From Candidatus Saccharimonadota bacterium (GTDB taxonomy: Bacteria; Patescibacteriota; Saccharimonadia; Saccharimonadales; Saccharimonadaceae): 32,000 nt of DNA. Position 1 is the first letter of the stretch. Each line of letters opens with the position of its first letter. Where the stretch lies: the NCBI GenBank assembly GCA_023898645.1, contig CP060232.1:1102347-1134346 (forward strand), read 5' to 3'. The translations under genes were made by a program, and so were the position numbers. The notes under the pieces were generated by a model, which saw only the letters and a list, made by a program, of their open reading frames with translations, was not told where the DNA came from and ran no database searches. Positions 1,782 to 31,975 of the stretch are shown in pieces.

Positions 1782-2204
1782 ATGAAGACAAAGGTTTTCT
1801 TGGGAGTACCAATCATTGCTACTATTTTGGTGGCTAGCTTAGTATTTACCCAAGATACTCATGCAGTTAGCCTCAGTATATCTGCCGGCGCCAGTGCTGC
1901 AAAGGGTACGGATCAAGCAGCTAATTTATTCGGTCAGACAGGTATGTTTCGTACTATAACCAACGTACTGCTATATCTCATTGGTGCCATAAGCGTCATT
2001 ATGCTTATCATAGGTGGACTACGATACGTTGTGTCTGGTGGAGACAGTACTGCCGTACAAAATGCGAAAAATACGATTCTTTACGCCATTGTCGGTATCG
2101 TCGTTGCAATTTTGGCATATGCTATCGTCAGTTTTGTTATTTCATCGTTCACAGGAGTAGGTGGCGGAGCTGGTGGTGGTGGAGTTGCGCCGACTAATAC
2201 GTAA
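1782..2204 (+). CDS. VirB2/TrbC-like T4SS pilin paralog (class A)
   Basis: I prefer the start at MKTKVFLGVPIIATILVASLVFTQDTHA (signal peptide); the track ORF begins upstream at 1731. The core FRTITNVLLYLIGAISVIMLIIGGLRYVVSGGDSTAVQNAKNTILYAIVGIVVAILAYAIVSFV forms a two-helix hairpin with a short basic loop, as in TrbC/VirB2 pilins. It has a Gly-rich C-terminal tail and is about 91 percent identical over the core to the gene at 3788..4222. Confidence 0.75.
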   Translation: MKTKVFLGVPIIATILVASLVFTQDTHAVSLSISAGASAAKGTDQAANLFGQTGMFRTITNVLLYLIGAISVIMLIIGGLRYVVSGGDSTAVQNAKNTILYAIVGIVVAILAYAIVSFVISSFTGVGGGAGGGGVAPTNT

Positions 2205-2320
2205 TTATTTAAGTAATGTATGTAAACTTTTCCAGCATTTCGCTACACTGCGCCGAAAACTCATAGTTGCATCGGCTAAAGCCGCTGCCCGCAAGCTCTA
2301 ATCAAGCCCGAACAGACAAG

Positions 2321-2352
2321 AAAATAGACCAGGCATTTGCCTGGTCTATTTT
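2321..2352. terminator. Bidirectional intrinsic terminator (pilin gene on +, tRNA-Ser on -)
   Basis: Perfect hairpin aaaatagaccagg-catttg-cctggtctatttt with an A-run on one side and a T-run on the other. It directly abuts the 3' end of the tRNA at 2354. Confidence 0.75.
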
Positions 2353-2353
2353 C

Positions 2354-2484: not shown

Positions 2485-3153
2485 TTAGTCGAGAGTTTGA
2501 CGACTAATTGAGGCAACCCAAACCTTACCAGCACCAGCATCAAGTAAAGTCTGGGCTGCGTATTTCACGGTCGCCCCAGTTGTAATGACATCATCTATAA
2601 GTAGATATGTTGCATTTGGATCTAACTTTTTACGGCAGACAAATGCAGACTTTGCTTGTGACACACGCTCCCGCACTCCCATGCCGCGCTGTGTTGTATT
2701 TGTAGCACGACTCAGCGACAAATCGACAGACAGCTTTCGTAAGCCACTAAACTTTCGCGCTACTAATAGCATGTGGTCGTAACCCCTTTGGCGAATATGA
2801 GAACCAACTGTAGGTACGGGAACAATAATTGTATTTTTCGGTAATTCAGGCAAATGGGAATGAAGTAGGTCAGCGAGCGGGCCATGTGCTGCTCGCGTGT
2901 TACTAAACTTGAAGTCATTTATCAGACTTTCAAGATGATCACGACGGTCGGCGACACACCAGGCGCGCTCATATGGCACACGACATACTCCACATAAACC
3001 ACTTGCTGGCGCCAGTTGCTTGCCACAGCCCACACACGCAGAGAAAGGTTCGCTTATGATGTCATATTTACAATTATCACATAGCATGGTGCCAATTATT
3101 CCGCATCCGGAACAGTGGTGGGGAGCGATAATTGATAGTAGTTGGTCAATCAT
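2485..3153 (-). CDS. comFC: ComF-family protein (ComFC-like phosphoribosyltransferase-fold competence protein)
   Basis: The N-terminal region has four CxxC pairs (CSGCG...CDNCK...CVGCG...CGVCR). The C-terminus carries the PRT-type motif YLLIDDVITTGATV. At 222 aa it is a typical ComFC length. Confidence 0.85.
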   Translation of the reverse strand: MIDQLLSIIAPHHCSGCGIIGTMLCDNCKYDIISEPFSACVGCGKQLAPASGLCGVCRVPYERAWCVADRRDHLESLINDFKFSNTRAAHGPLADLLHSHLPELPKNTIIVPVPTVGSHIRQRGYDHMLLVARKFSGLRKLSVDLSLSRATNTTQRGMGVRERVSQAKSAFVCRKKLDPNATYLLIDDVITTGATVKYAAQTLLDAGAGKVWVASISRQTLD

Positions 3154-3258: not shown

Positions 3259-3726
3259 ATGGCCCGCAAACAAAATACCAATGACGATCTATTGATCGAA
3301 GACGAATTGGCCGCCGCATTCCTGAATGACGACGATCTTTCAAGTAACGCCGATGATGGCGGTGTCGTCATGCATGATGACGAACAGCTTGAAGACGATT
3401 TTCCAGGACAGTTGGCAGTCGATGTATACGAAACCGAGGATAAGCTGGTTGTTAAAGCCCGCACAGCCGGTGTAAACAAAGATGAGCTAGACGTCAGTAT
3501 ATCTGACGGCATCCTAACAGTCAGCGGTACGCTGAGCAGTGGTGATGACGCCGATGTTAATAACTGGCACATTCAAGAATGCTACTGGGGCGAGTTTAGT
3601 CGTACACTAGCACTTCCTGTTGCCGTTAAGGAAGATGAAGTAGAGGCCGTCTTAAAGGATGGTGTTCTAACCATTACATTTAGCAAGGTTAAGCAAGAAC
3701 ACGCTAAGAAAATTCAGGTTCTGTAA
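3259..3726 (+). CDS. Hsp20/alpha-crystallin family small heat-shock protein
   Basis: The alpha-crystallin domain is recognisable: QLAVDVYETEDKLVVKARTAGVNKDELDVSISDGILTVSG...GEFSRTLALPVAVKEDEVEAVLKDGVLTITFSK. It has an acidic N-terminal arm and a good SD sequence. Confidence 0.9.
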   Translation: MARKQNTNDDLLIEDELAAAFLNDDDLSSNADDGGVVMHDDEQLEDDFPGQLAVDVYETEDKLVVKARTAGVNKDELDVSISDGILTVSGTLSSGDDADVNNWHIQECYWGEFSRTLALPVAVKEDEVEAVLKDGVLTITFSKVKQEHAKKIQVL

Positions 3727-3787: not shown

Positions 3788-4222
3788 TTACTGGCCGCTA
3801 GTGAAACTTGAGACAACAAAGTTGACTACAGCGTAGGCGAGAATAGCAACGACCACACCGACAATAGCATAAAGAATCGTATTTTTCGCATTCTGCACAG
3901 CCGTACTGTCGCCGCCAGATACAACGTAACGAATACCGCCGATAATAAGCATGATCACACTAATTGCGCCAATGAGGAACAATAGCACGTTGGTAATGGT
4001 ACGGAATATACCACCCTGGCCACCTGTACCAAAGAGAGTAGACGCGTCACCCTGCTGGTCCTTGCCCTGTGCAGCTCCTGCGCCGTCACTTAGTCCTTGG
4101 TTGAATGATGCGTGCACGGGAACAGGTTGCGCGAACAGACCAAAGCCCAATACCAATGCCGGTACGACAAGCGCCGCCGACAGAAGTTGTTTGATTTTAC
4201 TTTTCATGTATGAACCTTTCAT
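3788..4222 (-). CDS. VirB2/TrbC-like T4SS pilin paralog (class A), last gene of the array
   Basis: Signal peptide MKSKIKQLLSAALVVPALVLGFGLFAQPVPVHA. An alternative start at 4207 is preceded by AAAGG. Variable G/Q-rich segment, then the core FRTITNVLLFLIGAISVIMLIIGGIRYVVSGGDSTAVQNAKNTILYAIVGVVVAILAYAVVNFV. Confidence 0.75.
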   Translation of the reverse strand: MKGSYMKSKIKQLLSAALVVPALVLGFGLFAQPVPVHASFNQGLSDGAGAAQGKDQQGDASTLFGTGGQGGIFRTITNVLLFLIGAISVIMLIIGGIRYVVSGGDSTAVQNAKNTILYAIVGVVVAILAYAVVNFVVSSFTSGQ

Positions 4223-4279
4223 TTTGATTACTTTACTACTTTTATACCAGATGACGGGAGTTTTGTTAAGTGCTAACCA

Positions 4280-4660
4280 TTAACTTTTAAACGCACCGAG
4301 AACGAAGTTGACGATGGCGTACGCTAAGATAGCGACAACTAAACCAATAACCGCATACAGCACAACGTCCTTTGCTGATTTCACTGCTTGCGCGTCACCG
4401 TTACTCGTCGCGTAACGAATACCACCGATGATAATCATTATGACCGCAACAGCACCCAAGAGAAACAGGAGTACGTTCACGACTGTTTTAATTTTATCTT
4501 GAAGATCTTGCGTACCTGTCTGAGTACCGCCAACAGACGTAACTCCGCCTTGTATGCTATCAATTGGGCTTTGGGCTAAAACAGTTGAAGGCAACAGTGG
4601 TGCTGTAGCCAATCCAACTGTTGTCATAATGCCGAGAAGTAGTGTACGTAGTTTATTCAT
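4280..4660 (-). CDS. VirB2/TrbC-like T4SS pilin paralog (class A)
   Basis: Signal peptide MNKLRTLLLGIMTTVGLATAPLLPSTVLA, a variable T/G/Q-rich segment, then the core VVNVLLFLLGAVAVIMIIIGGIRYATSNGDAQAVKSAKDVVLYAVIGLVVAILAYAIVNFV. Confidence 0.75.
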   Translation of the reverse strand: MNKLRTLLLGIMTTVGLATAPLLPSTVLAQSPIDSIQGGVTSVGGTQTGTQDLQDKIKTVVNVLLFLLGAVAVIMIIIGGIRYATSNGDAQAVKSAKDVVLYAVIGLVVAILAYAIVNFVLGAFKS

Positions 4661-4673
4661 ATGGTTTCTCCTA

Positions 4674-5090
4674 TTAGTTTCCTTTCAGTCGTGCCAGTAC
4701 GAAGTTGACAATTGCATACGCCATGATTGCAACGACGAGGCCTATAACAGCATACAACACGGTGTCTTTGGCAGATTTAATCTGTTGTGAATCACCATTA
4801 CTTGTGGTGTATCTGATACCCCCTATGATAATCATGATCACAGCAACTATACCTAGCACGAATAAAATCATGTTGATAATGTTTGTCATAATAGAGGTGA
4901 AGCTGTCGCCAGTTGCGCCACAAATCTGACTCTGGCCAGCGCTAGAGGAGGCTCCGCCACCGGTAGTAGCACCACCAGCACCGCCACCAGGGCAATTCTG
5001 AAACACATTAATAGCCATAGCTGGCACTGGCATAAAACTAGTAAAAATAAGACTGAGACTAATGAGTAATGGTGATAGATATTTTTTCAT
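4674..5090 (-). CDS. VirB2/TrbC-like T4SS pilin paralog (class A)
   Basis: Signal peptide MKKYLSPLLISLSLIFTSFMPVPAMA, a Gly-rich variable segment with two Cys, then the core IINMILFVLGIVAVIMIIIGGIRYTTSNGDSQQIKSAKDTVLYAVIGLVVAIMAYAIVNFV. Confidence 0.75.
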   Translation of the reverse strand: MKKYLSPLLISLSLIFTSFMPVPAMAINVFQNCPGGGAGGATTGGGASSSAGQSQICGATGDSFTSIMTNIINMILFVLGIVAVIMIIIGGIRYTTSNGDSQQIKSAKDTVLYAVIGLVVAIMAYAIVNFVLARLKGN

Positions 5091-5100
5091 ACGTCCTCCT

Positions 5101-5397
5101 TTATTTTGCGACTTGCTGCAATATGAATTGTGTTATACCGGCCGCCATGATGACCACAATTAAACCAACGACAGCATAGGTGATAGTGTTCTTTGCTGCC
5201 TGGATCTGACTACTGTCACCGTTGGCACCTACATAGCGAACACCTCCGATGATAATAGCAAGTACCGCAACAATGCCTGCAATGAAATAAACGACGCCCA
5301 GTAAGTTACCAACCGTAGTACCTGTAATACTAGTAGGGGCACCCTGAAGGTTCAAATCTTCTTTTGAAATCTTAATTGTGTTGTTTGAAGTTGCCAT
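5101..5397 (-). CDS. VirB2/TrbC-like T4SS pilin paralog without an obvious signal peptide
   Basis: 98 aa. The hydrophilic N-terminus MATSNNTIKISKEDLNLQGAP is followed by the core LLGVVYFIAGIVAVLAIIIGGVRYVGANGDSSQIQAAKNTITYAVVGLIVVIMAAGITQFI. The start overlaps the upstream stop (TAATG at 5395..5399). Confidence 0.7.
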   Translation of the reverse strand: MATSNNTIKISKEDLNLQGAPTSITGTTVGNLLGVVYFIAGIVAVLAIIIGGVRYVGANGDSSQIQAAKNTITYAVVGLIVVIMAAGITQFILQQVAK

Positions 5398-5864
5398 TAT
5401 TTGATACTCCCAGCAATAAATTGAACAATGGCAATCGCCATAATTGAAATAACCAGACCAATGATAGCATTTTGGATGGTTTTGCGAGCAGCAACAGTGC
5501 CGCTACTGTTGTCACCCTGTGTCATATATTTAAACCCTCCCCATATAATGAATATGAGTGATGCGTAACCAACGACGTAAAGTAACATATCTACAATGTT
5601 CATGGCGATAATCGTCAGCCATGTGCCAAACCTTTTACCAGTGTCGCCACTACCAACCTCATTGGGTGATTTTATACTTCCGTCACTTTTACATAGTCCA
5701 TCGTACCAATGGGGGAAAATAGTGATACTTCCGCCACACGGATTAGAGCCGCCCGCAGAACTTGCGACGGTAGGCGCCGCATTAACGTATGACACCGGTA
5801 GTAGAGTAAATGCCGCAAGACTTATGAAAGTAATAGCAATTTTATATCTTATATTTCGTAACAT
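5397..5864 (-). CDS. VirB2/TrbC-like T4SS pilin paralog (divergent)
   Basis: Signal peptide MLRNIRYKIAITFISLAAFTLLPVSYVNA, an ectodomain of about 50 aa with two Cys, then the core NIVDMLLYVVGYASLIFIIWGGFKYMTQGDNSSGTVAARKTIQNAIIGLVISIMAIAIVQFI. Confidence 0.7.
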   Translation of the reverse strand: MLRNIRYKIAITFISLAAFTLLPVSYVNAAPTVASSAGGSNPCGGSITIFPHWYDGLCKSDGSIKSPNEVGSGDTGKRFGTWLTIIAMNIVDMLLYVVGYASLIFIIWGGFKYMTQGDNSSGTVAARKTIQNAIIGLVISIMAIAIVQFIAGSIK

Positions 5865-5871
5865 GTCGCAT

Positions 5872-6240
5872 CTATCCTATCACGCCACCAGGTACCAGCC
5901 AATTGATAATTGCAATGGTAAAACCATAAAGTAACAGACCAATGACAATATTTCGAATGATTGTTTTTGACTGATCTAGCTGGGATTGATTGTCGCGAGC
6001 AGACGCATAGAGAATTGCAGCATACGCCAAACCGCCAGTCGCCACCACTCCGATGAGTATAGTTAGTACGTTTGTCGCTATTTTTATCAAAGCACCAATT
6101 GTACCTATACCAGTTTTATCGCTACAGGAAATCAATTGAGTTTTAGTAGTACCACATGAACCTGCAGCGTATACAGGTGCAGCACTAACACCAAGCAGGA
6201 CGGCAAAAAGCGCAATGGTGATTTTTATTTTTTTCATCAT
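5872..6240 (-). CDS. VirB2/TrbC-like T4SS pilin paralog (class B, INWLVPGGVI C-terminus)
   Basis: Signal peptide MMKKIKITIALFAVLLGVSAAPVYA and a C-x9-C loop (SCGTTKTQLISCSD). The core is ATNVLTILIGVVATGGLAYAAILYASARDNQSQLDQSKTIIRNIVIGLLLYGFTIAIINWLVPGGVIG. Confidence 0.7.
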   Translation of the reverse strand: MMKKIKITIALFAVLLGVSAAPVYAAGSCGTTKTQLISCSDKTGIGTIGALIKIATNVLTILIGVVATGGLAYAAILYASARDNQSQLDQSKTIIRNIVIGLLLYGFTIAIINWLVPGGVIG

Positions 6241-6249
6241 ATCTTGGCG

Positions 6250-7425
6250 CTATTTTATCACGCCTCCGGGTACTAGCCAATTGATGATAGCAATCATAAA
6301 TCCATACACAAATAAACCTATCACGATATCGCGAATCCGCTTCCGTGCGTTTGATACGGCTCCTTGGTCGTCTTGAGCCTGTGCGTACTGAATTGACTCC
6401 CACACTATACCGCCGACAGCCCCTATACCAACCAGTATCGAAAGTGCCTGCACGACATACTGAAGCACCGTACTAAGTACCTCTCCGCCCCTAGCATTTG
6501 TGTCGCAGTTTATAAGATTAGTCTTTGCTTGGCCACATCCGCCTTTAACCGTAGAGGTTGTCGTACCTGGACCGCCAGCATCATTAACACTTGAACCGTC
6601 TGGGCAATTACCGTTTGCATCCGCCGTGCTGCCATCCTTACACTTAGGAGGCGTGGGTGGCGGCGGCAATGTACACTTATTATTTACCCATGTACCTCCG
6701 GCAGCAGAGCATTCATTTGGCGACTTCGCCTTCGTTGCCATACATTGCTGCAGTGTATCGTTGGTAATTTTTGTTCCCGTACCACCATTCTGGTCATAAC
6801 ACTCATTAATCGAGTTATCGATGTTTGTCTCGCACTGCTTTATCTGATTAACATCACTAAGATTAGCGTTGTTACAGGCGCTCGCCACATAGCTATCTAT
6901 GCGATCCTGTTTAGTCTTCGAGTTCGTATTGTAGTCTTGGCCCCCGACCGCTGCGTTACGCTGGTCAATGGCGTTGTCTATGCCACACCCAGACCCCAAG
7001 GTAACTAGCCACAAATCCGTTGGCCCTGAACCATCCGCACCAACATTACCGTTATTACACGTTGTTGCAAACGCTAAAACATCTTTGTCATTACACGCGG
7101 TAGTGTCTATTTCATTGGTATAACAAGATACAAGTGCGTTCGAACAGTTACCCTCTTCAGTACCTGGTACATAAGAAATGGAGCTAAGGCCACCTATCTG
7201 TGCCGTGTTTGCACACTGCCTAACCGCAGCAAGACAGTCACTAGCCTTTATGTATTGCGATACCGACTTGCAGTTACCGCTTACACATGTACCATCATCC
7301 TTTGAGCCAGAGCAAGACGCCTGCGCTGCGTCCTCATACACAAATGAAAAAGAAAATGATGCGGCGATTATACTGACAATTACGAGTAGTTTTTTCATGA
7401 ACAATGTTATTCTCTTAATATTCAT
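6250..7425 (-). CDS. Cysteine-rich ectodomain fused to a class-B VirB2/TrbC-like pilin module (candidate adhesin or tip pilin), first gene of the array
   Basis: 391 aa with a signal peptide ending AAQA (alternative start at 7398, MKKLLV). A secreted region of about 260 aa holds about 20 Cys and a PPPPTPP linker. Next comes the C-x9-C loop GGCGQAKTNLINCDTN. The pilin core follows: VLQYVVQALSILVGIGAVGGIVWESIQYAQAQDDQGAVSNARKRIRDIVIGLFVYGFMIAIINWLVPGGVIK, colinear with 5872..6240. Confidence 0.7.
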   Translation of the reverse strand: MNIKRITLFMKKLLVIVSIIAASFSFSFVYEDAAQASCSGSKDDGTCVSGNCKSVSQYIKASDCLAAVRQCANTAQIGGLSSISYVPGTEEGNCSNALVSCYTNEIDTTACNDKDVLAFATTCNNGNVGADGSGPTDLWLVTLGSGCGIDNAIDQRNAAVGGQDYNTNSKTKQDRIDSYVASACNNANLSDVNQIKQCETNIDNSINECYDQNGGTGTKITNDTLQQCMATKAKSPNECSAAGGTWVNNKCTLPPPPTPPKCKDGSTADANGNCPDGSSVNDAGGPGTTTSTVKGGCGQAKTNLINCDTNARGGEVLSTVLQYVVQALSILVGIGAVGGIVWESIQYAQAQDDQGAVSNARKRIRDIVIGLFVYGFMIAIINWLVPGGVIK

Positions 7426-7519: not shown

Positions 7520-8488
7520 CTATTCAGACGGTGCTTTAATAGAGAGTGTGTCGGGATAGGTGATTATCATTGTTGTAGTTGCGGGCACGCGGTCTTTATT
7601 GTCACTAATATTTTGAAGCTTCGTTATCTTACCAGATGTCTTATTAATCCAAAACTTCACTTTCACAACACCAGATTGTTGATTGGCAGTCGCGTAGGAT
7701 ACGGTGCGACCAAGCAACTTATCTACCTGTAAACTGGCTGTCTTTAATCCGTTCTGATTCAGAATAATCGTATAAATATCTGTGTCGTTGCCTGAATTAA
7801 CGCCATCAATTGTATAAACGTTATTTTCCTTCACGATGTCCAATAGGCTTTGAACTCCGTCACCAAAATTGCCAGCAAATACATATCTTGGTATCGTGCT
7901 AGCAGTAAATCTTAGACCAAATGGGTCATATGCCGACACGTCCGCTTTTTTGCTCAGATCGCTTAGATGTTTCCATACACCCGTTTGGACTAAGCCGTTT
8001 GGAGCCATAGTGCCAGACACATTGTCAATCTGAGAAAACTTCGCGTAAAAATCTCCTGAATCTAAAGCGATTAATGACCCCGCAACTCTACCTTTATTAA
8101 GCCCATACGCATCGCTATCTTTAGATACGGAGACACTGTAATTAACGTCCACCCTAGGCGCACTCTTCATGGAGAAGTCTGATGTCGTCGTCATGTCTAT
8201 CTTCAATGATTCACTACTGGCGGTTCCGTCTGCAACGATTTTGATATATTTTTCGTTCGCAAACTGTCTAATTGCTTGATAAAACTCTCTCTCCGGGACG
8301 CCTTGTACCCATACAAATACCGCCGCGCCAAGACCACCAACCAATAGAATTATGAGTGTGACTGTAAATATAAGCTTCAACTTTTTATTAGATTTCGACC
8401 GCTGGCCCGTTGCGGGATCAAGGTGTAAGTAATCAGGAACTTGATAGGGCATACCGTTTTGATTTGAGTTTTGTTGATTTGGTTGCAT
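7520..8488 (-). CDS. Bitopic membrane protein of unknown function (Q/N-rich cytoplasmic N-terminus, one TM helix, ectodomain of about 250 aa)
   Basis: 322-aa ORF with TM segment LKLIFTVTLIILLVGGLGAAVFVWV. I recognise no motif. It is co-oriented with and 94 nt upstream of the pilin array, and divergent from the VirB6-like gene. Confidence 0.6.
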   Translation of the reverse strand: MQPNQQNSNQNGMPYQVPDYLHLDPATGQRSKSNKKLKLIFTVTLIILLVGGLGAAVFVWVQGVPEREFYQAIRQFANEKYIKIVADGTASSESLKIDMTTTSDFSMKSAPRVDVNYSVSVSKDSDAYGLNKGRVAGSLIALDSGDFYAKFSQIDNVSGTMAPNGLVQTGVWKHLSDLSKKADVSAYDPFGLRFTASTIPRYVFAGNFGDGVQSLLDIVKENNVYTIDGVNSGNDTDIYTIILNQNGLKTASLQVDKLLGRTVSYATANQQSGVVKVKFWINKTSGKITKLQNISDNKDRVPATTTMIITYPDTLSIKAPSE

Positions 8489-21205: not shown

Positions 21206-21210
21206 AAACC

Positions 21211-21507
21211 ATGTCACTACTAAACAAACAATTTTTACAATCATTAGGCATAGAGCTTGACGATCAAACATTTGAAGCTTTCGACGAACACTTTGAAGCA
21301 ACGCTACAGGAGCGAGTTGTTGACGCTATAGTCGACGGTTTGGATGAACAGCAACTTGAACAACTGTCTGCCGTACGTGAACAAGGTGGCGATGCTGTCG
21401 CTATGCAAACATGGCTACAGGCAAACGTGCCCGATTTGAGCCAAATCGTTCAAAGCGAGGTAGATATACTACTAGGTGATCTAGCCGAAAGCGGCGATCA
21501 TATCTAG
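21211..21507 (+). CDS. Small acidic cytoplasmic protein of unknown function
   Basis: 98 aa, rich in D/E, with no TM segment (MSLLNKQFLQSLGIELDDQTFEAFDEHFEATLQERV...LQANVPDLSQIVQSEVDILLGDL). It starts 5 nt after the preceding stop. It resembles a small-protein family I associate with CPR genomes, but I cannot name that family reliably. Confidence 0.5.
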   Translation: MSLLNKQFLQSLGIELDDQTFEAFDEHFEATLQERVVDAIVDGLDEQQLEQLSAVREQGGDAVAMQTWLQANVPDLSQIVQSEVDILLGDLAESGDHI

Positions 21508-22685: not shown

Positions 22686-22700
22686 GTGGAGGTAAGAAGG

Positions 22701-23570: not shown

Positions 23571-25474
23571 TGAGCGCTAAACGACCCGACGCCGTAGACA
23601 TAGCCGCCCAACAACGTGCCCGCGAGCAGGCTGAAGTTGAACAAGCATTTCAAAAGGGAATTACGACTCTACGTGATTTAGTAGCACCGGCTTCTTTGGA
23701 AATACACGCCAGCTACTTCAGGCTAGGTACTAAATACGGACGTACCATCTATGTATATGCGTATCCTCGTCAGATCTACACTGGCTGGTTGTCGAGTATC
23801 ATCAACATCGATGAAGTGCTTGATGTTAGTATGTACTTCTACCCGGTAGAGTCTGAGATTGTGCTCAAAAACCTGCGCAAAAAAGTGACTCAAATGCAGG
23901 CAACTATGGCTATCAACGAAGAAAAGGGCCGTACGCGCGACCCAGGACTCGAAGCCGCTCTTAACGACGCCGAGGAGCTGCGTGATGAAATCCAGGTTGG
24001 CTCGGAGCGATTTTTCCGTTACGGACTCTACATCACTATGTATGCCGACAGCCTCGACGAGCTAAACTTCATACAACATAAAATCGAAACCATCTTTGGT
24101 CAGCAACTCGTCTTTAGTAAGGTTGCTTCTAGTCAACAGGAGCAGGGAATCAACAGTACCGTGCCACAGATGACAGACCAGCTGCAGATTCGCCGCAACA
24201 TGAACACCGGTGCAATTTCAACGTCATTCCCATTCACAAGTGCCGACCTGACACAAGAAAAGGGCATCCTGTACGGGATCAATATGCACAACAACGGTTT
24301 GATTATCTTTGACAGGTTTACCTTGGAAAACGCCAATATGGTTGTCTTTGCAAAGTCTGGTTCCGGTAAGTCATTCACCGTTAAGCTTGAGGCGATTCGC
24401 TCTATGATGATGGGCGCTGACGTTTTGATTATCGACCCTGAAAACGAATATCAGAAGCTTTCAGATGCCGTTGGCGGTAGTTATATACGCCTATCACTTA
24501 ACTCTGACGTTCGTGTTAATCCGTTTGACCTGCCACGAGTTGTTGACACTGAAGAAGCTGATGACGCGTTGCGTGCCAACTTGGTAACACTCCACGGTCT
24601 ACTGCGACTTATGCTCGGTGGTGCTTCACTACAAGCGAGTGGTCAAACAAATGTTTCCGCCATGACACCCGCCGAGGAAGCTGATTTGGATCAAGCGTTA
24701 ATCGACACATACGCTCGAGCTGGCATTACTAGTGATCCGCTAACACACACTTCGCCGCCGCCAACAATGGTTGACCTGTATGACACGCTTGTTCACATGG
24801 AAGGCAGCGGCCCATCGCTTGCACAGCGTCTCCGTAAGTACACTACCGGTACATTCGCAGGTATTTTCAGTCAGCAGTCTAATATAGACATCAATAACCA
24901 GATGGTTGTGTTTAACATTCGTGACCTTGAGGATGAACTGCGACCAGTTGCTATGTATATCGTCCTAAGCCACATTTGGAATGTTACTCGAAGCCACTTA
25001 AAGAAACGTATGTTGATCGTGGATGAGGCATGGCAGCTTATGAAATACGAAGACAGTGCAAACTTTTTGTTCAGTCTCGCGAAACGTGCTCGAAAATACT
25101 ACCTTGGCGTTACAACCATTAGTCAGGACGTCGAGGACTTCATGGCGAGTAAAATGGGTCGCGCCATCGTAGCCAACAGCTCTATGCAGCTACTTCTCAA
25201 ACAGTCGCCAAGTGCGGTCGACGTGCTCGCTGACGTCTTTAAGCTCACCGACGAAGAGCGCAAGCGACTTAGTAACTTCCCAGTCGGTCAAGGACTTTTC
25301 TTTGCTGGTGCTAATCACGTCCATATTCAGGTTGTTGCTAGCCGTACCGAACATCAACTCGTTACAACAAGCCCAGTTCAGCTACTTCAGCAAGAGGAGC
25401 AAAAGCGCATGGAGACATTAGCGGCGCAACAACGAGAATCACAAGGGCAGCAAGCAGCTGATCAACAAGGATAA
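23570..25474 (+). CDS. virB4: VirB4-family T4SS ATPase
   Basis: 634 aa. The N-domain reads LVAPASLEIHASYFRLGTKYGRTIYVYAYPRQIYTGWLSSII. Walker A is VVFAKSGSGKSFTVK, followed by LIIDPENEYQKL...VNPFDL. Walker B is KRMLIVDEAWQLM. The motif TTISQDVEDF is also present. Confidence 0.93.
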   Translation: MSAKRPDAVDIAAQQRAREQAEVEQAFQKGITTLRDLVAPASLEIHASYFRLGTKYGRTIYVYAYPRQIYTGWLSSIINIDEVLDVSMYFYPVESEIVLKNLRKKVTQMQATMAINEEKGRTRDPGLEAALNDAEELRDEIQVGSERFFRYGLYITMYADSLDELNFIQHKIETIFGQQLVFSKVASSQQEQGINSTVPQMTDQLQIRRNMNTGAISTSFPFTSADLTQEKGILYGINMHNNGLIIFDRFTLENANMVVFAKSGSGKSFTVKLEAIRSMMMGADVLIIDPENEYQKLSDAVGGSYIRLSLNSDVRVNPFDLPRVVDTEEADDALRANLVTLHGLLRLMLGGASLQASGQTNVSAMTPAEEADLDQALIDTYARAGITSDPLTHTSPPPTMVDLYDTLVHMEGSGPSLAQRLRKYTTGTFAGIFSQQSNIDINNQMVVFNIRDLEDELRPVAMYIVLSHIWNVTRSHLKKRMLIVDEAWQLMKYEDSANFLFSLAKRARKYYLGVTTISQDVEDFMASKMGRAIVANSSMQLLLKQSPSAVDVLADVFKLTDEERKRLSNFPVGQGLFFAGANHVHIQVVASRTEHQLVTTSPVQLLQQEEQKRMETLAAQQRESQGQQAADQQG

Positions 25475-25492: not shown

Positions 25493-28400
25493 ATGGCCCT
25501 GACAACAAAAGGTGGCATCCCAGATCAGGACAATGGCAACCACAACCCATCTGAATTTGACTCAAGTGATACTGCTCGTGGCTTAAGCCAACTCGAAAAC
25601 CACCCAGACAATCCGTCAGATGACGACTCCGAACAAGGTATTCAAAACGCAGAAAATTTTGCCAATAGCGACAGTAGTAATGGCAACCCTTTTGATTCTT
25701 ATTACAAAAAGAAGATGGGTGGCAATAAGAGCGGTCAACATATTGATACTCACGGTGACACCGTACAAGACAACCCTAACGCTGATACGCCAAACTTAAA
25801 GGAGAGGGAAGAAAATCCAGGATCTCTCTATAAGTCCGGTGAGGAATCGTCTGTTAATCCGAAATCGGGAGGACGTTGGAAATCAAAATTTTTATCGAAC
25901 GCTAAGCGTTATGGTGCAAGCGGTGGTGCTGCCGGTTTAGTTATCGGTGGTTTTTTCGGAGTAAGCGTCATCATGGTGCCGGGGTCTCTGCTTGTAACCA
26001 TCGAAAAGGCGATTACTAATGATAGTTCTGATTCAACGCGAACCAATATTTCGTTTCGTCGAGCCTATGTCTCTAAACTTTTTAATAAGGGAAATTCCAG
26101 CACGGGTTCAAAGATAGAAGACAAGCTGACTAGTATGAGTGAAGGCCAAAAAGCAAGATTCGAAAAAGAGGGCTTTAAGGTAGAACTGAATACAAAAGGC
26201 AAGATAAAATCCATGAAATTCCCTGATGGCACTTTAGTTAAAGATGGCGCTTCCTTTAATAGTCATGCCGAGAATACAGTCGAAGGTAGACGTGCAACCA
26301 GTAACGTACTCGACGTTAGGTCTGCATTTTTTGAGAATCAAAAGTTCAAGGATGTACTTAAAAACTTCAATATCGAGAAGGGGAAACGCCTTAAGCCATC
26401 TGAAGACGCTGACCCCGCGAAGCGTAAAAAAGCCATCGATGAATCGTTTGATGAAAATACAAAATTAAAGGCAGAGAATACGAGTGATCCAAAAGCTGTA
26501 GATAGTAGGGTTAAAGACCTAGAATCAAAAACAGTTGAAAGTAGCAGCCTTAAATCAAAAGTAACCGAAATTACCGACAAAGCAGGAAAAGCCGCTCTTG
26601 CCGCACTTCCGATATCAACCGTCTGTGCATCTTATAATGTCGCAAGATTGACGACCGCAACCATAAAGGCAGAATGGATTTATCAGCTTGTTAGTTTTGC
26701 CTATCCGTTCGTGCGGGCGGCAGCCCAGATAGAGGATCAGGGTGACATCGAACCGTCAGTCGTAGAAAATCTAGCTAATCGATTAACGTGGTATGACCCG
26801 AATAAAACCCTGCCAAGTCCAGATCCATCATTACCAGGATCAAAAGCGGGTGATCCAAATCCAAAATATAATTTAACCGCCATGGATTCGCAGGGATTAC
26901 AAATGGCTATATATGGTGATTTTTCTGGCTTAACTCAATTTGCTAAAAATTACACCTCTTGGGGCTGGGAGGTTAGTGTTAATTCTATTGCCAATAAATA
27001 CATCAATCTTGTGCGAAGTGTTGCTGGTAGTAAACAAAATGTAAAAGATATCTGTTTGGGCGCAAAACTCGTTAACGAAGCAGCTACCATACAGTGTGCC
27101 GCAGGACCAGTTGCAGCCGCTTTATGTGTAGCGGGCGTACTTGTACTACCAACGGTTGGTAAGATAGCCGCTGGAGCACTGGCGGCCGAACTCGCAAAAC
27201 CAGCGCTGGCATTTCTTGCTAGAGTTGACCTTTCCTCTACTACTCAGGGTGTAGATGCTGGTAATGCTCTTGCAGCTGGCATCGGACTGCTATTATCCAA
27301 CTCAACCCTAGGCTCTGGATTGCGCCCGGTTGGCGGCACTTCAAAGGCGCAAATGTTACAAAAAATAAAAGGATTCATCGCTGATACGAACGAAACAAAC
27401 TATAAATACACAACCCAACTTGCTCTCGATGAAGCTAAAAGAAACCAGTTTGACGTATCAAACCAATATTCGTTTATGGGTCAAATAGCTTCTCAGTTAA
27501 ACCCTTATCTAAATGGAGACGGAACTTTCTTTAGCAGGATTGCTAGTATGGTGCGTGTTATTGGTACGTCATTTAGTAAATTACCGACATCGGCTAACGC
27601 CTTATTTAGCCAACCTTCAAATATGACACTCGAAGATGGGATTAATGGGGACCCAGCATCTAATCGTATAAATAAATGCGCGGACCAAGATATGGAGACT
27701 ATCGGTGCGGCATGCGATTGGTCTGGGAGGATAATTGGCTACACCACCAACAATGTCCTTCAGGGATTAAATCAAATTGCAAACAATAAAATCGCAGGCG
27801 GTTCGGATATACTCACAAAAAGTATTAATTTCATGATAAACGACAAGACGGAATACAGAGATCCAACCACTGGCGTCTCAAAGACAATAGACGGTGATAT
27901 TAATCAAGATACTGGCGAAACGATTTCTCATTCAAATTTTGAAAATTACATAAAATACTGCGTTGAGCGTAAGAGTCCTAATAATGGAACTGTTCCAATT
28001 GGTTCGTCGGTAGAATCAATTGCCGAAGATGACGGTAATTGGTTTGACGGTGAACGATGTCTAGGTAAAGATAATAAGGATCAAACGATGCTCGACAGTT
28101 TTGCTACATACTACAACTGGTGTTACGTGCAGTACGCTACTGCCGAGCGGATGACTGATTGCGTGCATAATACACCAGAAGCAAACAATGCAGCTAATGT
28201 ATCGAGCGATTGCGGTGACGGCTCAACCGGTAGTATTTACTCTTGTGCACTACAGTTCGACCCTTACGCGTATTCCTACGGAGCTGGTCACGATGAATAT
28301 GGAAAAGTTTCCTGGTATCAAAATTTTAAAACGAATACTCCCTCACCAAACTCTAATCCGTTCGACTGCTCGAGTTTAGTTATGGCATCAGTTGTCGCAG

Positions 28401-28702
28401 CGTTCGGACACGACATACCGGGTATGTCGGCACCTAGCAGCTTTCATGACACCACGCATTGGCAAAAACTTCCCGATGGAAGCGCGCAGCAAGGCGATGT
28501 CATAGTCTGGAACGGTCACGTAGAAATAATTAAAAGCAAAGATGGCAACGGCTATACGACGTTTGGTGCACACACCCACCACGCGAATAATCAAGAGGCA
28601 GATATTAGTGGAGGGAGTTATGGTTTACATGGAGAAGGTCAAGGCGACGCCTATGACGGAGTTTATCGATACGTAGGTCCGGGAGCGAGTAAATCAGTAT
28701 GA
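25493..28702 (+). CDS. Large membrane-anchored surface protein, paralog B, with a C-terminal NlpC/P60 cysteine peptidase domain (VirB1-function analogue)
   Basis: 1069 aa with a disordered acidic/polar N-terminus, one TM helix (AAGLVIGGFFGVSVIMVPGSLLV) and a large ectodomain colinear with 10639..13926. The C-terminal NlpC/P60 signature is NPFDCSSLVMASVVAAFGHDIPGMSAP...QQGDVIVWNGHVEIIKS...FGAHTHH, with the Cys codon at 28367..28369. Confidence 0.8.
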   Translation: MALTTKGGIPDQDNGNHNPSEFDSSDTARGLSQLENHPDNPSDDDSEQGIQNAENFANSDSSNGNPFDSYYKKKMGGNKSGQHIDTHGDTVQDNPNADTPNLKEREENPGSLYKSGEESSVNPKSGGRWKSKFLSNAKRYGASGGAAGLVIGGFFGVSVIMVPGSLLVTIEKAITNDSSDSTRTNISFRRAYVSKLFNKGNSSTGSKIEDKLTSMSEGQKARFEKEGFKVELNTKGKIKSMKFPDGTLVKDGASFNSHAENTVEGRRATSNVLDVRSAFFENQKFKDVLKNFNIEKGKRLKPSEDADPAKRKKAIDESFDENTKLKAENTSDPKAVDSRVKDLESKTVESSSLKSKVTEITDKAGKAALAALPISTVCASYNVARLTTATIKAEWIYQLVSFAYPFVRAAAQIEDQGDIEPSVVENLANRLTWYDPNKTLPSPDPSLPGSKAGDPNPKYNLTAMDSQGLQMAIYGDFSGLTQFAKNYTSWGWEVSVNSIANKYINLVRSVAGSKQNVKDICLGAKLVNEAATIQCAAGPVAAALCVAGVLVLPTVGKIAAGALAAELAKPALAFLARVDLSSTTQGVDAGNALAAGIGLLLSNSTLGSGLRPVGGTSKAQMLQKIKGFIADTNETNYKYTTQLALDEAKRNQFDVSNQYSFMGQIASQLNPYLNGDGTFFSRIASMVRVIGTSFSKLPTSANALFSQPSNMTLEDGINGDPASNRINKCADQDMETIGAACDWSGRIIGYTTNNVLQGLNQIANNKIAGGSDILTKSINFMINDKTEYRDPTTGVSKTIDGDINQDTGETISHSNFENYIKYCVERKSPNNGTVPIGSSVESIAEDDGNWFDGERCLGKDNKDQTMLDSFATYYNWCYVQYATAERMTDCVHNTPEANNAANVSSDCGDGSTGSIYSCALQFDPYAYSYGAGHDEYGKVSWYQNFKTNTPSPNSNPFDCSSLVMASVVAAFGHDIPGMSAPSSFHDTTHWQKLPDGSAQQGDVIVWNGHVEIIKSKDGNGYTTFGAHTHHANNQEADISGGSYGLHGEGQGDAYDGVYRYVGPGASKSV

Positions 28703-29166
28703 AAAAACGAATTATTATCGTCGCGGTTGTCTTGATTCTTGGCGCAATGGGAATATACTTCTTTATTTTGCATAATAAACAGTCAAGCGAAGAAAATACG
28801 CCGACAAAAACGACCGTGCCAATCGGCGAAACAGTAACTCCAAATAAAACACCCGACGGTACACCTACGAAAACTCCTGCTTCCATACCGCCGCCAACGA
28901 CGCAACAATTATATGATGTGATCACGCAAAACGATGCCGTGCCTATAAAAGAAAATGGGCAGCCCGATTTTGGCATTACGAATGTTAAACAACCTCTGTC
29001 AGGCTGGTTTATCGTGACGATTCGCAAAAATGGTCTTGAACCAGCAAAAGTTATATTAAAACAAACGGGTAATTCCAGTAGCCCACTAACGGTCGTGGCA
29101 GGTCCCGGCACATCCTTCCCGCCGAGCGATGTGTCTCTTCCTGATGCGGTAAGGAGGGCGTTGTAA
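28699..29166 (+). CDS. Small bitopic membrane protein of unknown function
   Basis: 155 aa with N-terminal TM helix IIIVAVVLILGAMGIYFFIL, a T/P-rich tether and a globular part of about 80 aa. The start overlaps the upstream stop (ATGA) and its stop overlaps the next start (TAATG), which suggests tight translational coupling within the operon. Confidence 0.6.
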   Translation: MKKRIIIVAVVLILGAMGIYFFILHNKQSSEENTPTKTTVPIGETVTPNKTPDGTPTKTPASIPPPTTQQLYDVITQNDAVPIKENGQPDFGITNVKQPLSGWFIVTIRKNGLEPAKVILKQTGNSSSPLTVVAGPGTSFPPSDVSLPDAVRRAL

Positions 29167-30536
29167 TGAAAAGTAGTTCCCGCGCCAGCGACGTATTACA
29201 AAAGATGAAGATTTTGTTCCTGTTGTTTGTCTGTGCAATCAATGCCAATATGTCACCACTCGCACACGCCGTAAATGCAAATAGCAACCAAGAAGCGGCA
29301 GATCTTGAAAGGCGATACCGTGAAACGAATGACGTTTTATATTATGACCATAGTTGCTCCAGTTCGAGTTCTAGTTCTTCTAGTTCGGCAACGGCCGGAC
29401 TTGGCGATGCCGGCGGTTGTGGAGTCAATGGCGGTAATGACCCGGCAAACGTGAATCAAGTATGGACATATCTGGTCGGGCAATTCGAGGCAAAGGGCTT
29501 TTCGGAACAAGATGCGCAAAATGCAGCTGCTGGTGTTATGGGTAACTGGATGCAAGAAAGCAGTCTTAATTCCTATGTTTCTGGTGGTCAGGGTTGCGGT
29601 AGTAGTGCAGCTTTTGGTATCGCCCAATGGTGCGGTGATCGTATTACTAAGGCGAAGGAATTCATTGCATCACAAGGAAAATCAGAGGATTGCCTTGGCG
29701 CTCAAATCCAATATGCATGGAGTGAGTTAGAGGGTGGATATTCTAGTGTTATCGATAACATGAAAGGTAAAAGTGCGAGTGAAGCCGCATTGATATTTGA
29801 CCAACAGTTTGAAAAGTCGACCGATCAACAACATGGTAATAATAACCGTGAAAATAATGCTGCGAACATTTTTGCCGTACAAACAGGAGCAGCACCCGCA
29901 AGTACACTTGGTAGCAGTACGCCAGGCGCAGGATCTTCAAGTAGTTCCAGTTCGTCGTCGTCATGCGGTTCGGCAGCTACTGATAATGGCGAGTGTCAAA
30001 ACCCTTTTCGAGATCTAAAGAATTCAGGTGTATCGAGACTCGACGGCGGTTATGATTACGGCGGGCCAAGCGGAGAGGGACCGATATATGCAGCTTGTCC
30101 TGCAAAAATCATATTAGTGCGCACTTCAGGTTCCGGTTGGCCAGGATTAGGAACTAGTAGCGGAGGGGCATACATCAAATATCAGATGACAGCAGGCAAG
30201 GCAAAAGATCTCTATATGTTCATATCAGAAGACTGTACACCAAAGGTCAAAGAAGGGGATACTGTCGACACCAGCACTCCTATTTGCTATTACAAAGACC
30301 AGGGCACACAACTTGAAACAGGCTGGGCCTCTGGTGGCGGGGGAACGGGATATGTTGAGTGGTCGGATTACAACTCGCATGGCGGCGGCAACTGGGCATC
30401 TAACTCGGGTGTTGATGTCGATCAATTTCTACAGTCTCTCGGATTGCCGCACGACAATGTCAACGCCGGACCAAGTACGACAGGCGTCCCGCCAGGATGG
30501 CCGAAGTGGACCACGGGAGGTAATATAAATGATTAA
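29166..30536 (+). CDS. Secreted peptidoglycan hydrolase candidate (phage-tail-lysozyme-like / lytic glycosidase-like domain) with a C-terminal domain of unknown function
   Basis: A strong RBS AGGAGGG lies 7 nt upstream. The signal peptide ends LAHA, and poly-Ser linkers are present. The domain reads AAAGVMGNWMQESSLNSYVSG...FGIAQWCGDRITKAKEFIASQGKSEDCLGAQIQYAWSELEG...ASEAALIFDQQFEKS. This matches the G-x-(M/I)GN-x-x-x-ES...GI-x-QW...R...QL/QI-x-(F/Y)-x-x-x-EL...F-x-x-x-(F/Y)E pattern of phage-tail-lysozyme-type muramidases. Confidence 0.55.
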   Translation: MKSSSRASDVLQKMKILFLLFVCAINANMSPLAHAVNANSNQEAADLERRYRETNDVLYYDHSCSSSSSSSSSSATAGLGDAGGCGVNGGNDPANVNQVWTYLVGQFEAKGFSEQDAQNAAAGVMGNWMQESSLNSYVSGGQGCGSSAAFGIAQWCGDRITKAKEFIASQGKSEDCLGAQIQYAWSELEGGYSSVIDNMKGKSASEAALIFDQQFEKSTDQQHGNNNRENNAANIFAVQTGAAPASTLGSSTPGAGSSSSSSSSSSCGSAATDNGECQNPFRDLKNSGVSRLDGGYDYGGPSGEGPIYAACPAKIILVRTSGSGWPGLGTSSGGAYIKYQMTAGKAKDLYMFISEDCTPKVKEGDTVDTSTPICYYKDQGTQLETGWASGGGGTGYVEWSDYNSHGGGNWASNSGVDVDQFLQSLGLPHDNVNAGPSTTGVPPGWPKWTTGGNIND

Positions 30537-30547
30537 GGATATACAGT

Positions 30548-31975
30548 ATGTCTCCGACTAAGCAACGAACGATACTTTTCTATACGGTCATGGGTATATT
30601 TGCAGTGGCAGCGATTTGGGCGTTATTTCTGTACTTTACATCGGCAACGCTTACGATCACGACAAACAGCGCTTCAAATACAATCCTTGTCCACGAAAAC
30701 AGCCCGACAAAACGCAATATCGAATTAAATCAAAACAAAAACCAGGCAAGCGTACAGGTAGAAGCCGGGAATTATACTGTGACGATTCAAAATAAAGCCA
30801 CCTCCACAAGTCAGATCGTAAATCTGAAAATGGGCGAGCGTAAGTCGATAATACTCAACCTTGAAACCGCAGAGCTGGGGGTAACTACACCTTCGGTCGT
30901 CACCAGCCTGGGCGCTGGAAATATCACCGCCGCAAGTGATCACCTGACTTTTATCGACAAAAACAATCCTAATAGACCGCTATACACCGTGAATATAGCA
31001 AATCGCACCTCATTACTTGATGGCGGACACAATTACACTTCCGTGAAGTGGGCGGATCCATCATTCGGTATTGGTCTCGTGACTTTTGGTTCGGTGAAAT
31101 ACGGTCTCGTAAAAATAAGCGGGCAAACAATCACCAACATTACGTTACCGTTCACCGCGACAAAAGCAATTACCTATGCAATATCGCCGAACCGTACTTG
31201 GTATATCTCCGACGGTAGTATCGTTTATAAAGCAAATGGCGACGGATCATTTACGAAAATATATACGACAAATGATACCGTTAGGGTTGAATCTGCTTCA
31301 AACAATGCCGTTCTACTTACGCATCTTGCAAAAAATTCCATTCGTGTCGACAGCTTAATATCGCTTCATAGCGATGGGACGAAATATCAAATCGAAGGTG
31401 AGTTATATGAGTCAGTGTGGTCGCCGCTTGGTGACAAACTTGTTATCAGTAGTGATGACGATACTGGTATATACGACAGTACTCTACATAGTCTATCTCC
31501 ACTACCACGTGGTAATGTCATTTCTCCTGTTTGGCTTGATGATACGACACTGTTTTATGTCATCGGTAGCGACGTCTGGCGCTACGACACAACGAGTAAA
31601 AAGGCGAGTATTGTGACGTCAGTCGATAGTTCGGTTGGTTCATTCTCTTCAATAACACCCGATAACAGTGGAAATTACCTCTATATATCCGTATACCGTT
31701 CAGGTTTTACACAGCCGACCTTTGGACTCGATCGAATCAGTTTAAAGGGTAAACCTCTATTAAACACCACGACAGCAGGTCGCTTGAATATTATATTTCC
31801 TCATGTCGACAGTATATGTACCATCAACTTTATGAATTTCACTTCAATTAGCGTACTTATTAGCCAAACAGCTACCAATCAAAGTTGTTATGCGACAGCA
31901 AAAAATGCAATCACTGACTCTCGGATTCTCGATGCTTCAGTAATCTCAAAACTCAATTATCAACGTATTCAATAA
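30548..31975 (+). CDS. Membrane-anchored protein of unknown function, possibly with beta-propeller (TolB/PD40-like) repeats
   Basis: 475 aa with N-terminal TM helix ILFYTVMGIFAVAAIWALFLYF. Recurrent segments are reminiscent of PD40 repeats: ISPNRTWYISDGSIVYKANGDG, WSPLGDKLVISSDDDTGIYD and ITPDNSGNYLYISV. The RBS AAGGA and an 11-nt gap after the hydrolase gene support co-transcription. Confidence 0.45.
   Translation: MSPTKQRTILFYTVMGIFAVAAIWALFLYFTSATLTITTNSASNTILVHENSPTKRNIELNQNKNQASVQVEAGNYTVTIQNKATSTSQIVNLKMGERKSIILNLETAELGVTTPSVVTSLGAGNITAASDHLTFIDKNNPNRPLYTVNIANRTSLLDGGHNYTSVKWADPSFGIGLVTFGSVKYGLVKISGQTITNITLPFTATKAITYAISPNRTWYISDGSIVYKANGDGSFTKIYTTNDTVRVESASNNAVLLTHLAKNSIRVDSLISLHSDGTKYQIEGELYESVWSPLGDKLVISSDDDTGIYDSTLHSLSPLPRGNVISPVWLDDTTLFYVIGSDVWRYDTTSKKASIVTSVDSSVGSFSSITPDNSGNYLYISVYRSGFTQPTFGLDRISLKGKPLLNTTTAGRLNIIFPHVDSICTINFMNFTSISVLISQTATNQSCYATAKNAITDSRILDASVISKLNYQRIQ

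Follow-up and report, generated by a model that had tools for sequence, protein, structure and literature searches.

An origin-proximal type IV secretion locus with VirB2-type pilins and no local coupling protein or relaxase in a Candidatus Saccharimonadota genome

Gene content of the secretion locus

The window analysed here is a stretch of 32,000 nucleotides (nt) of contig CP060232.1, from a Candidatus Saccharimonadota bacterium, which carries the locus of a type IV secretion system (T4SS) comprising a VirB4 ATPase, a PrgI/VirB3-like membrane protein, VirB6-like polytopic proteins, VirB2-type pilins and cell-wall hydrolases. A six-frame listing of open reading frames (ORFs) revealed 27 tightly packed genes and two tRNA-Ser genes, the largest gap between ORFs being at most ~300 nt, and the G+C content is even (0.41–0.51) without an island-like break. 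All 27 ORFs were scanned with Pfam and NCBIfam profiles. Contigs overlapping the window revealed that the locus extends ~5.6 kb beyond the window end, to a total of ~36 kb. This extension, as well as the TrsD-like ORF that precedes virB4, had been missed by an earlier note made from the sequence. The genes attributed to the machine are the following (aa, amino acids).

1782..2204, + strand: solitary pilin (PF18895, 41.6 bits; signal peptide and a hairpin of two transmembrane helices)
3788..7425, − strand: array of seven pilin genes, six above the PF18895 cut-off; members at 3788–4222, 4280–4660, 4674–5090, 5101–5397, 5397–5864, 5872–6240 and 6250–7425, all on the − strand
8570..10639, + strand: VirB6/TrbL-like polytopic protein a (VirB6a), 689 aa, paralog of the product of 17843–20164
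16936..17772, + strand: bitopic 278-aa protein, candidate VirB8-like protein (NTF2 fold), with the position and size of SEML1_0012
17843..20164, + strand: VirB6/TrbL-like polytopic protein b (VirB6b), 773 aa, precomputed annotation PF19590 TrbL_3
21567..22685, + strand: PrgI/VirB3-like membrane protein (PF12666, 3.8e-13, above the cut-off)
22686..23570, + strand: TrsD-like protein, 294 aa (NCBIfam TrsD, 1.6e-6)
23570..25474, + strand: VirB4 ATPase of the MPF-FATA/CD1110 type (P-loop_TraG, 7.9e-29)
25493..28702, + strand: membrane-anchored bitopic 1069-aa protein with an NlpC/P60-type C-terminus (weak Pfam NlpC_P60/Amidase_5 match)
29166..30536, + strand: secreted lysozyme, Phage_lysozyme2 (PF18013, 3.6e-24; C-terminal domain unassigned)

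The presence of PrgI and VirB4, proposed in the earlier note, is confirmed by the profile scans. VirB4 scores 376.7 bits (2e-112) against the NCBIfam equivalog of the CD1110 family, above the cut-off of 325, and its best solved homologue is the Thermoanaerobacter VirB4 (PDB 4AG5, 8e-46). The Walker A (GSGKS) and Walker B (LIVDEA) motifs are both intact as read in the translation. The ATPase covers positions 173–733 of the 752 of the CD1110 profile and thus lacks the first ~170. The preceding TrsD-like protein aligns with the N-terminal part of the VirB4_plasma (4e-7) and CD1110 models and carries a precomputed PF26593 TraC-like annotation; the stop codon of its gene and the virB4 start share 1 nt. 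Because the ATPase aligns only with positions 173–733 and the preceding ORF matches VirB4 N-terminal positions, VirB4 is encoded by two conserved ORFs, one for a TrsD-like N-terminal domain and one for the ATPase. The same split with the same 1-nt overlap is found in Southlakia epibionticum ML1 (SEML1_0009 and SEML1_0008) and is kept in ~80 species loci. A pseudogenised VirB4 was considered and rejected, both halves being conserved and the Walker motifs intact.

VirB4 is 78–100% identical in 86 loci and at least 78% identical to its counterparts in 80 further Saccharibacteria species. Median identities across the 80 species loci are 82% for VirB4, 62% for the TrsD-like protein and 49% for PrgI, which bears a long Pro/Ala/Thr-rich extension at its C-terminus, against 24–36% for the VirB6-like and exposed proteins. 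These values indicate strong purifying selection on the core in the cytoplasm and membrane. On plasmids, the closest homologues of VirB4 (30–38% identity, annotated as CD1110 family) come exclusively from Bacillota or Actinomycetota. This affinity and the CD1110 membership of VirB4 itself mark the machine as monoderm-type.

Eight paralogous VirB2-type pilin genes are present, as the earlier note had proposed; seven of the eight are above the PF18895 T4SS_pilin cut-off and the eighth is assigned by paralogy. All eight are linked by pairwise BLAST, with identities of 22% to 76%, and share a signal peptide followed by a hairpin of two transmembrane (TM) helices. The ORF of the solitary pilin opens at GTG 1731, and initiation at ATG 1782 yields the 140-aa product as called elsewhere, which is 65% identical to pilin 3788–4222. 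A 221-nt inverted repeat (76% complementary; 1932–2152 versus 3801–4021) lies within the solitary pilin and the first array pilin genes and brackets the tRNA-Ser, ComF and Hsp20 genes. Pilin 4674–5090 is also above the cut-off of PF04956 TrbC/VirB2 (30.2 bits). Pilin 5872–6240 is the one below the PF18895 threshold (16.1 bits, E 0.012) but shares 47% identity with the C-terminal hairpin of the 391-aa pilin 6250–7425. Conserved Cys pairs and a C-terminal WLVPGGVI sequence set these two apart as a distinct subclass. The 391-aa pilin bears in addition a Cys-rich N-terminal extension of ~300 aa and could be a tip or adhesin pilin.

The two VirB6-like proteins are paralogs (35% identity, E 6e-54), each with approximately six TM helices. 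The C-terminus of VirB6a is Gly-rich, repetitive and probably disordered; a tandem repeat with a 9-nt period, coding for GGxGG, occupies 9830–9934 in this tail. A promoter-like TTGACA-17-GATACT sequence, not above chance, lies at 8531–8559 before the VirB6a gene. VirB6b is of the 'extended VirB6' type, with Cys-containing external loops and a C-terminal helical domain (residues ~440–735) that is well folded in the AlphaFold2 model (predicted local distance difference test, pLDDT, 76). The PF19590 annotation of VirB6b was found on an identical protein, and PF04610 TrbL/VirB6 is matched by 25/57 members of the VirB6-like family, with a best E of 1.7e-5.

Two database searches, one of them with a profile, found only four homologues of the bitopic 278-aa protein. 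Its AlphaFold2 model is shallow (pLDDT 56) and reaches a pLDDT of 70–89 over residues ~103–290, where helices are followed by a β-sheet. None of the Foldseek matches of this model is significant (E of at least 0.37), although most of the top 50 are NTF2-like and include the Rickettsia VirB8-like protein 4o3v. The ECOD domain e4ec6D1 corresponds by its code to PDB 4EC6, which we take to be TraM of pIP501, a VirB8-like protein. SEML1_0012 is assigned to this NTF2-like domain (Table S2 of Wang et al., PMC10633639).

The two hydrolase activities of the earlier note also stand, the lysozyme firmly and the NlpC/P60 assignment through a weak match supported by visible motifs. In the 1069-aa protein the NlpC_P60/Amidase_5 match spans residues 951–1011 (E 0.0096), and the catalytic-type motifs 'DCSSLV' and 'GHVEI' are present. 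In Gram-positive conjugative modules virB4 is followed by a large VirB1-like hydrolase, of which this protein is the analogue. Searches of PDB sequences with the 1069-aa protein and the lysozyme returned nothing useful.

Chromosomal position and relation to known systems

No family match to VirD4, relaxase, VirB11, VirB7/9/10 or integrase, nor to replication or partition families, was found among the 27 window ORFs, in agreement with the earlier note. A type IV coupling protein (T4CP) of the VirD4/TcpA type and a relaxase are absent from the window, from ~9 kb downstream and from 1.5 kb upstream. Past the window end the locus continues with a 977-aa M23 protein, a 425-aa Phage_lysozyme2 protein, a PEGA protein and a 157-aa protein, followed by recF, dnaN, a 93-aa ORF, dnaA and rnpA, with recF-dnaN-dnaA ~5.6–9 kb beyond the window end. 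On the upstream side, the window is preceded by genes for a TMEM175 channel and an SRPBCC protein. No att-like direct repeats of at least 20 nt flank the locus, the only repeats being paralog- and tRNA-derived. A protein identical to VirB6b is encoded on a 1.13-Mb contig, which was counted for a chromosomal location. Because the locus runs into recF-dnaN-dnaA, it is chromosomal and origin-proximal and is not an integrative and conjugative element (ICE); a prophage or ICE origin was considered and rejected. In the Saccharibacteria loci with enough downstream sequence, dnaN lies less than 10 kb from virB4 in 52/58 species, and inheritance is therefore likely to be vertical. The view of the earlier note that the flanks are chromosomal (both tRNA-Ser genes, Hsp20 and ComF are confirmed) and that the apparatus is chromosomally fixed, T4SS-derived and non-conjugative thus gains support from the recF-dnaN-dnaA flank and the conserved proximity to dnaN. 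The VirD4, relaxase, integrase and att repeats that the note expected of an ordinary ICE were not found in the flanks.

The organism is a Saccharibacterium, because VirB4 is 92–96% identical to Saccharimonadia metagenome-assembled genomes, including the complete genome CP011211. The H6797_* proteins, of which H6797_05915 is 100% identical to VirB6b, are labelled 'Candidatus Nomurabacteria bacterium' by NCBI; this label is probably wrong, since every close VirB4 relative is from Saccharimonadia.

The closest described counterpart is the locus of S. epibionticum ML1. Its order is dnaA, dnaN, recF, SEML1_0004, a PEGA protein (0005), a lysozyme (0006), 0007, VirB4 (0008), 0009, PrgI (0010), 0011, an NTF2-like protein (0012), a VirB6-like protein (0013), pilins (0014–0019), Hsp20 (0020), 0021, tRNA-Ser, 0023 and pilin 0024 (PMC10633639). 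The window order matches SEML1_0001–0024 almost gene for gene, and the synteny comparison proposed in the earlier note revealed a core kept in ~80 species loci. Shared with ML1 are dnaA-dnaN-recF, PEGA, lysozyme, a hydrolase-bearing protein of ~1000 aa, VirB4, the TrsD-like protein, PrgI, a VirB6-like protein, a small bitopic protein, a second VirB6-like protein, a divergent pilin array, Hsp20, a ComF-like protein, tRNA-Ser and a solitary pilin, as well as the lack of a local T4CP or relaxase. In contrast, the locus is larger here (~36 kb versus ~20 kb for SEML1_0004–0019) and has eight pilins instead of seven. The interval between the two VirB6-like genes holds an inserted block coding for a 1095-aa paralog, a 222-aa protein and an esterase; additional soluble proteins precede PrgI, and downstream come an M23 protein, which is the third giant paralog, and another lysozyme. 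At 689 and 773 aa, the VirB6-like proteins fall short of their ML1 counterparts (~1000–1090 aa), and the hydrolase domain of the post-VirB4 protein is NlpC/P60-like here and DD-peptidase-like in ML1.

Transposon sequencing (Tn-seq) in ML1 identified SEML1_0004–0011 and 0013–0019 as essential for epibiotic growth (PMC10633639). These include the lysozyme SEML1_0006, the 1113-aa SEML1_0007 with a DD-peptidase fold, PrgI (SEML1_0010) and the equivalents of the array pilins (SEML1_0014–0019), while the NTF2-like SEML1_0012, SEML1_0021 at the ComF position and SEML1_0024, the positional equivalent of the solitary pilin, are non-essential (PMC10633639). Wang et al. in 2023 described the ML1 system as resembling Gram-positive conjugative T4SSs, with essential pilins and without recognisable coupling or relaxase proteins (PMC10633639). 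McLean et al. in 2020 had reported a conserved VirB4/B6/B2 region with an array of small proteins and GntX in TM7x. A survey of 2,474 virB4 genes across thousands of Patescibacteria genomes by Quinonero-Coronel et al. in 2025 described affinity to MPF-FATA, TrsD, PrgI, VirB6, arrays of 2–11 VirB2 genes and proximity to dnaA (PMC12102498). According to a 2025 review, Patescibacteria T4SSs are unique among monoderms and rank with the most intriguing of the T4SS superfamily: no other T4SS is essential for the cell that carries it, and no other monoderm T4SS has VirB2 pilins; a pilus conduit for signals or uptake is speculated (PMC12857230). The statement of the earlier note that T4SS loci had been noted in Saccharibacteria is therefore true and understated, as the system has already been found essential by Tn-seq (PMC10633639), surveyed (PMC12102498) and reviewed (PMC12857230). 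Pilins, an absent relaxase, a distant coupling protein and origin proximity were all published between 2020 and 2025, and the window is a further example.

Among conjugative systems, the closest to the window are the CD1110/CTn2 systems of the mating-pair formation class FATA (MPF-FATA). Two CD1110-type plasmids, from Clostridium perfringens and Brevibacillus, display the order MobC, relaxase, DUF3801, VirD4, small proteins, PrgI, VirB4 and a large SLT or NlpC/P60 hydrolase. Of this order the window retains the part to the right, from the polytopic protein through PrgI and VirB4 to the large hydrolase-bearing protein, and lacks the whole DNA-processing part to the left. The features in common are a VirB4 above the CD1110 cut-off, PrgI directly upstream of VirB4, a large membrane-anchored peptidoglycan hydrolase after VirB4, and the lack of VirB7/9/10 and VirB11. 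The window differs from MPF-FATA systems, pCF10 and pIP501 among them, in having no MobC, relaxase, DUF3801 or VirD4, in its VirB2-type pilins and in its split VirB4. The locus lies, moreover, on the chromosome close to the origin instead of on a mobile element; VirB4 is 30–38% identical, and the hydrolase and the proteins at the VirB6 position show no detected similarity. No similarity emerged when the 1069-aa protein was compared by BLASTP with the NlpC/P60 protein encoded after VirB4 in the Brevibacillus plasmid, nor when the VirB6 family profile was compared by hhalign with the 264–266-aa proteins upstream of PrgI in the two plasmids, a comparison of low power as its templates were single sequences. 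Because both comparisons were negative, the correspondence of the polytopic and hydrolase proteins with the plasmids is positional only.

The diderm MPF-T (VirB/D4) systems differ in their VirB7/VirB9/VirB10 core and VirB11, which are unmatched in any window ORF. The ComB and Ced systems work without a relaxase and a T4CP. Similarly, Bordetella Ptl and Brucella VirB have VirB2-type pilins and use no coupling protein or relaxase (PMC12102498, PMC12857230). Unlike the system of the window, Ptl, Brucella VirB and ComB belong to diderms and possess a VirB7/9/10 core, whereas Ced comes from archaea; none of the four is essential for the viability of its owner.

Proposed function and alternative explanations

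The best explanation of the locus, with a probability of about 0.85, is that it is the orthologue, in a Saccharimonadia genome of the activated-sludge type, of the vertically inherited, origin-adjacent Patescibacteria T4SS derived from a CD1110/CTn2-like MPF-FATA conjugation apparatus. During this descent the ancestral DNA-processing half (MobC, relaxase and T4CP) would have been lost and an array of VirB2-type pilins gained. PrgI/VirB3, the TrsD-like fragment and the VirB4 ATPase would form the energising complex at the cytoplasmic membrane, with the two VirB6-like polytopic proteins as translocon or pilus-assembly platform and the NTF2-like candidate possibly filling the role of VirB8. The anchored giant hydrolases (NlpC/P60 and M23) and the two lysozymes may open the peptidoglycan of the epibiont and possibly that of the host. 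Sec-inserted pilins would be drawn from the membrane and assembled into a filament or conduit reaching the Actinobacteria-type host. The committed guess is a contact-dependent conduit that transfers no relaxase-bound DNA. Protein export onto or into the host is favoured because neither a relaxase nor a T4CP is present, and it is tentatively the most likely activity, at somewhat less than even odds; uptake of host molecules comes next, as a possibility held with considerable doubt. As a well-assembled, expanded environmental example, the window confirms the origin-adjacent position, the split VirB4 and the pilin array and brings no new principle. Gene content, homology, chromosomal context and conservation were established here, and essentiality is taken from S. 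epibionticum.

Several points weigh against this explanation. The first concerns VirB6, the weakest of the assignments, for which topology and synteny fit. The scans of the window proteins found no Pfam or NCBIfam match for VirB6a or VirB6b, and the VirB6 family profile retrieved no PDB sequence below E 0.4. A Foldseek search of the PDB with the VirB6b model returned nothing significant, TrwI/VirB6 (8rt9_F) appearing at rank 38 with E = 1, in a search probably blurred by the use of the uncropped multi-domain model. Of the claim of two VirB6-like proteins made in the earlier note, the paralogy, the PF04610 matches of relatives and the precomputed PF19590 annotation speak in its favour, and the direct profile scans and the structural search gave it no significant match. 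The evidence for a VirB8 role of the 278-aa protein is suggestive only. T4CP homologues distant from virB4 are common in Patescibacteria (PMC12102498), which leaves room for a coupling protein elsewhere in the genome. Finally, pilus formation, transport direction and substrate are inferences.

A purely adhesive pilus, which would attach the cell to its host with nothing passing through, is the first alternative. The eight diversified pilins, including the 391-aa Cys-rich possible tip adhesin, and the lack of a T4CP for substrate recruitment would be in keeping with such a structure. However, Saccharibacteria already adhere by two type IV pili (PMC11623550), and Ptl and Brucella VirB secrete proteins without a T4CP (PMC12102498, PMC12857230). 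The many wall hydrolases also suggest that the envelope is breached and not just bound, and an adhesive pilus is thus considered unlikely.

The machine could alternatively take up DNA in the manner of Helicobacter ComB or archaeal Ced, host or environmental DNA feeding a nucleotide-auxotrophic organism. ComB and Ced share with the locus the lack of relaxase and T4CP, a ComF/GntX gene lies within the locus, and VirB4 weakly matches CedB (1.8e-10) and CedD (4.7e-6); Saccharibacteria are, moreover, naturally competent (PMC10633639). However, the CedB match is far weaker than the CD1110 match (2e-112), and the ML1 gene at the ComF position is one of the non-essential genes (PMC10633639). S. epibionticum depends on comEC for competence yet survives its deletion, in contrast to the essential T4SS (PMC12857230), so the essential role of the T4SS is not ComEC-linked DNA uptake. 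DNA import is accordingly regarded as quite improbable.

The locus could also belong to a conjugative element or ICE with its coupling protein, relaxase and integrase encoded beyond the window. In favour of this are the colinearity of VirB4, PrgI and the hydrolase with CD1110-type conjugative plasmids and the T4CP homologues present elsewhere in many Patescibacteria genomes. Against such an element stand the recF-dnaN-dnaA flank downstream and the housekeeping-type genes upstream, the failure to find an integrase, att repeats or a compositional break at the locus, and the position near dnaN in 52/58 species. Relaxases are scarce, being found in just 103 Patescibacteria genomes, and in ML1 the T4CP is dispensable (PMC12102498), which makes this alternative very improbable. 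The last alternative, that an old conjugative element has decayed here into a non-functional remnant, is suggested by the lost DNA-processing genes and the division of VirB4 into two ORFs. It is effectively refuted by conservation and the Tn-seq data, since the split recurs with its 1-nt overlap in ML1, both halves retain high median identity, the Walker motifs are intact and the ML1 orthologues are essential.

Accessory genes, strain-level variation and neighbours

The remaining genes of the window are the following.

608–1426: CAAX protease (profile search)
1556–1648 and 2355–2442, − strand: tRNA-Ser(gct) and tRNA-Ser(tga) (ARAGORN, Rfam), bracketing the solitary pilin
2485..3153, − strand: ComF/GntX-family phosphoribosyltransferase-like competence protein (TIGR00201 comF, 5e-25, full-length)
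3259..3726, + strand: Hsp20 small heat-shock protein (PF00011, 2.9e-19), conserved neighbour, SEML1_0020 in ML1
7520..8488, − strand: bitopic 322-aa protein, one TM helix, no family match
10639..13926, + strand: bitopic 1095-aa protein, paralog of the product of 25493–28702 (BLASTP 1e-11 and 8e-9)
13974..14642, − strand: bitopic 222-aa protein, TM helix, no family match, in the clade-specific block
14776..16824, + strand: HSL/BD-FAE-type esterase, 682 aa (PF20434 BD-FAE, 5.5e-19; GDSAG motif)
20246..21507, + strand: soluble proteins of 319 aa (highly charged) and 98 aa (acidic, DUF5663-like), no TM helices
28699..29166, + strand: bitopic 155-aa protein, TM helix, inside a hypervariable cassette
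30548..31975, + strand: bitopic 475-aa protein, TM helix, no family match, last gene of the window

The 1095-aa protein is also related to the 977-aa Peptidase_M23 protein just past the window end, the third paralog. The C-termini of these three membrane-anchored paralogs of ~1000 aa are unassigned, NlpC/P60-like and M23, respectively; the single such protein of ML1 has a DD-peptidase fold. The genes from the 1095-aa paralog through the esterase form a block found only in the nearest clade (loci L007–L014), and the paralog is absent from the more distant Saccharibacteria loci compared. The 222-aa protein is conserved in the nearest relatives only. The esterase, the start of which follows the gene call in a related contig, has LipP1/LipQ-type NCBIfam matches and Thr/Pro-rich and Gly/Ser-rich linkers; it is predicted to be membrane-anchored or secreted, is accessory to the nearest clade and could act on host envelope esters.

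A second strain with a 100% aa-identical VirB4 displays nt identities of 93.8–100%, mostly 98–100%, over 17.8–19.3 and 20.3–28.3 kb, and again 95–99% in the downstream M23 gene. Two segments are only 57–75% identical at the nt level. The first, 19330–20329, corresponds to the C-terminal helical domain of VirB6b, and the second, 28300–31950 (~3.6 kb), covers the NlpC/P60 end, the 155-aa protein (48% aa identity to its counterpart), the lysozyme and the 475-aa protein. Two bounded divergent segments between otherwise near-identical strains suggest cassette replacement; that these are swappable specificity cassettes, exchanged by recombination to match host cell walls, is a speculative proposal and rather doubtful. 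If it held, the cassettes would be host-range determinants of the epibiont's T4SS, and the clade-specific block of esterase and paralog a further adaptation to the host envelope. The paralog expansion, the esterase and the strain-level cassettes provide comparative material for host-specificity experiments.

The 319-aa and 98-aa proteins (DUF5663 E 0.0024 for the latter) are fast-evolving, with almost no tblastn matches even in close species. The 322-aa protein is the final gene of the leftward operon. The ComF-like gene is a conserved neighbour of the machine. The Rfam scan of the window returned the two tRNAs and nothing more, and the tRNA-Ser context is likewise present in ML1. A perfect 18-nt palindrome at 2318–2355 abuts the 3' end of tRNA-Ser(tga); lying between the tRNA and the solitary pilin gene, it probably terminates transcription in both directions.

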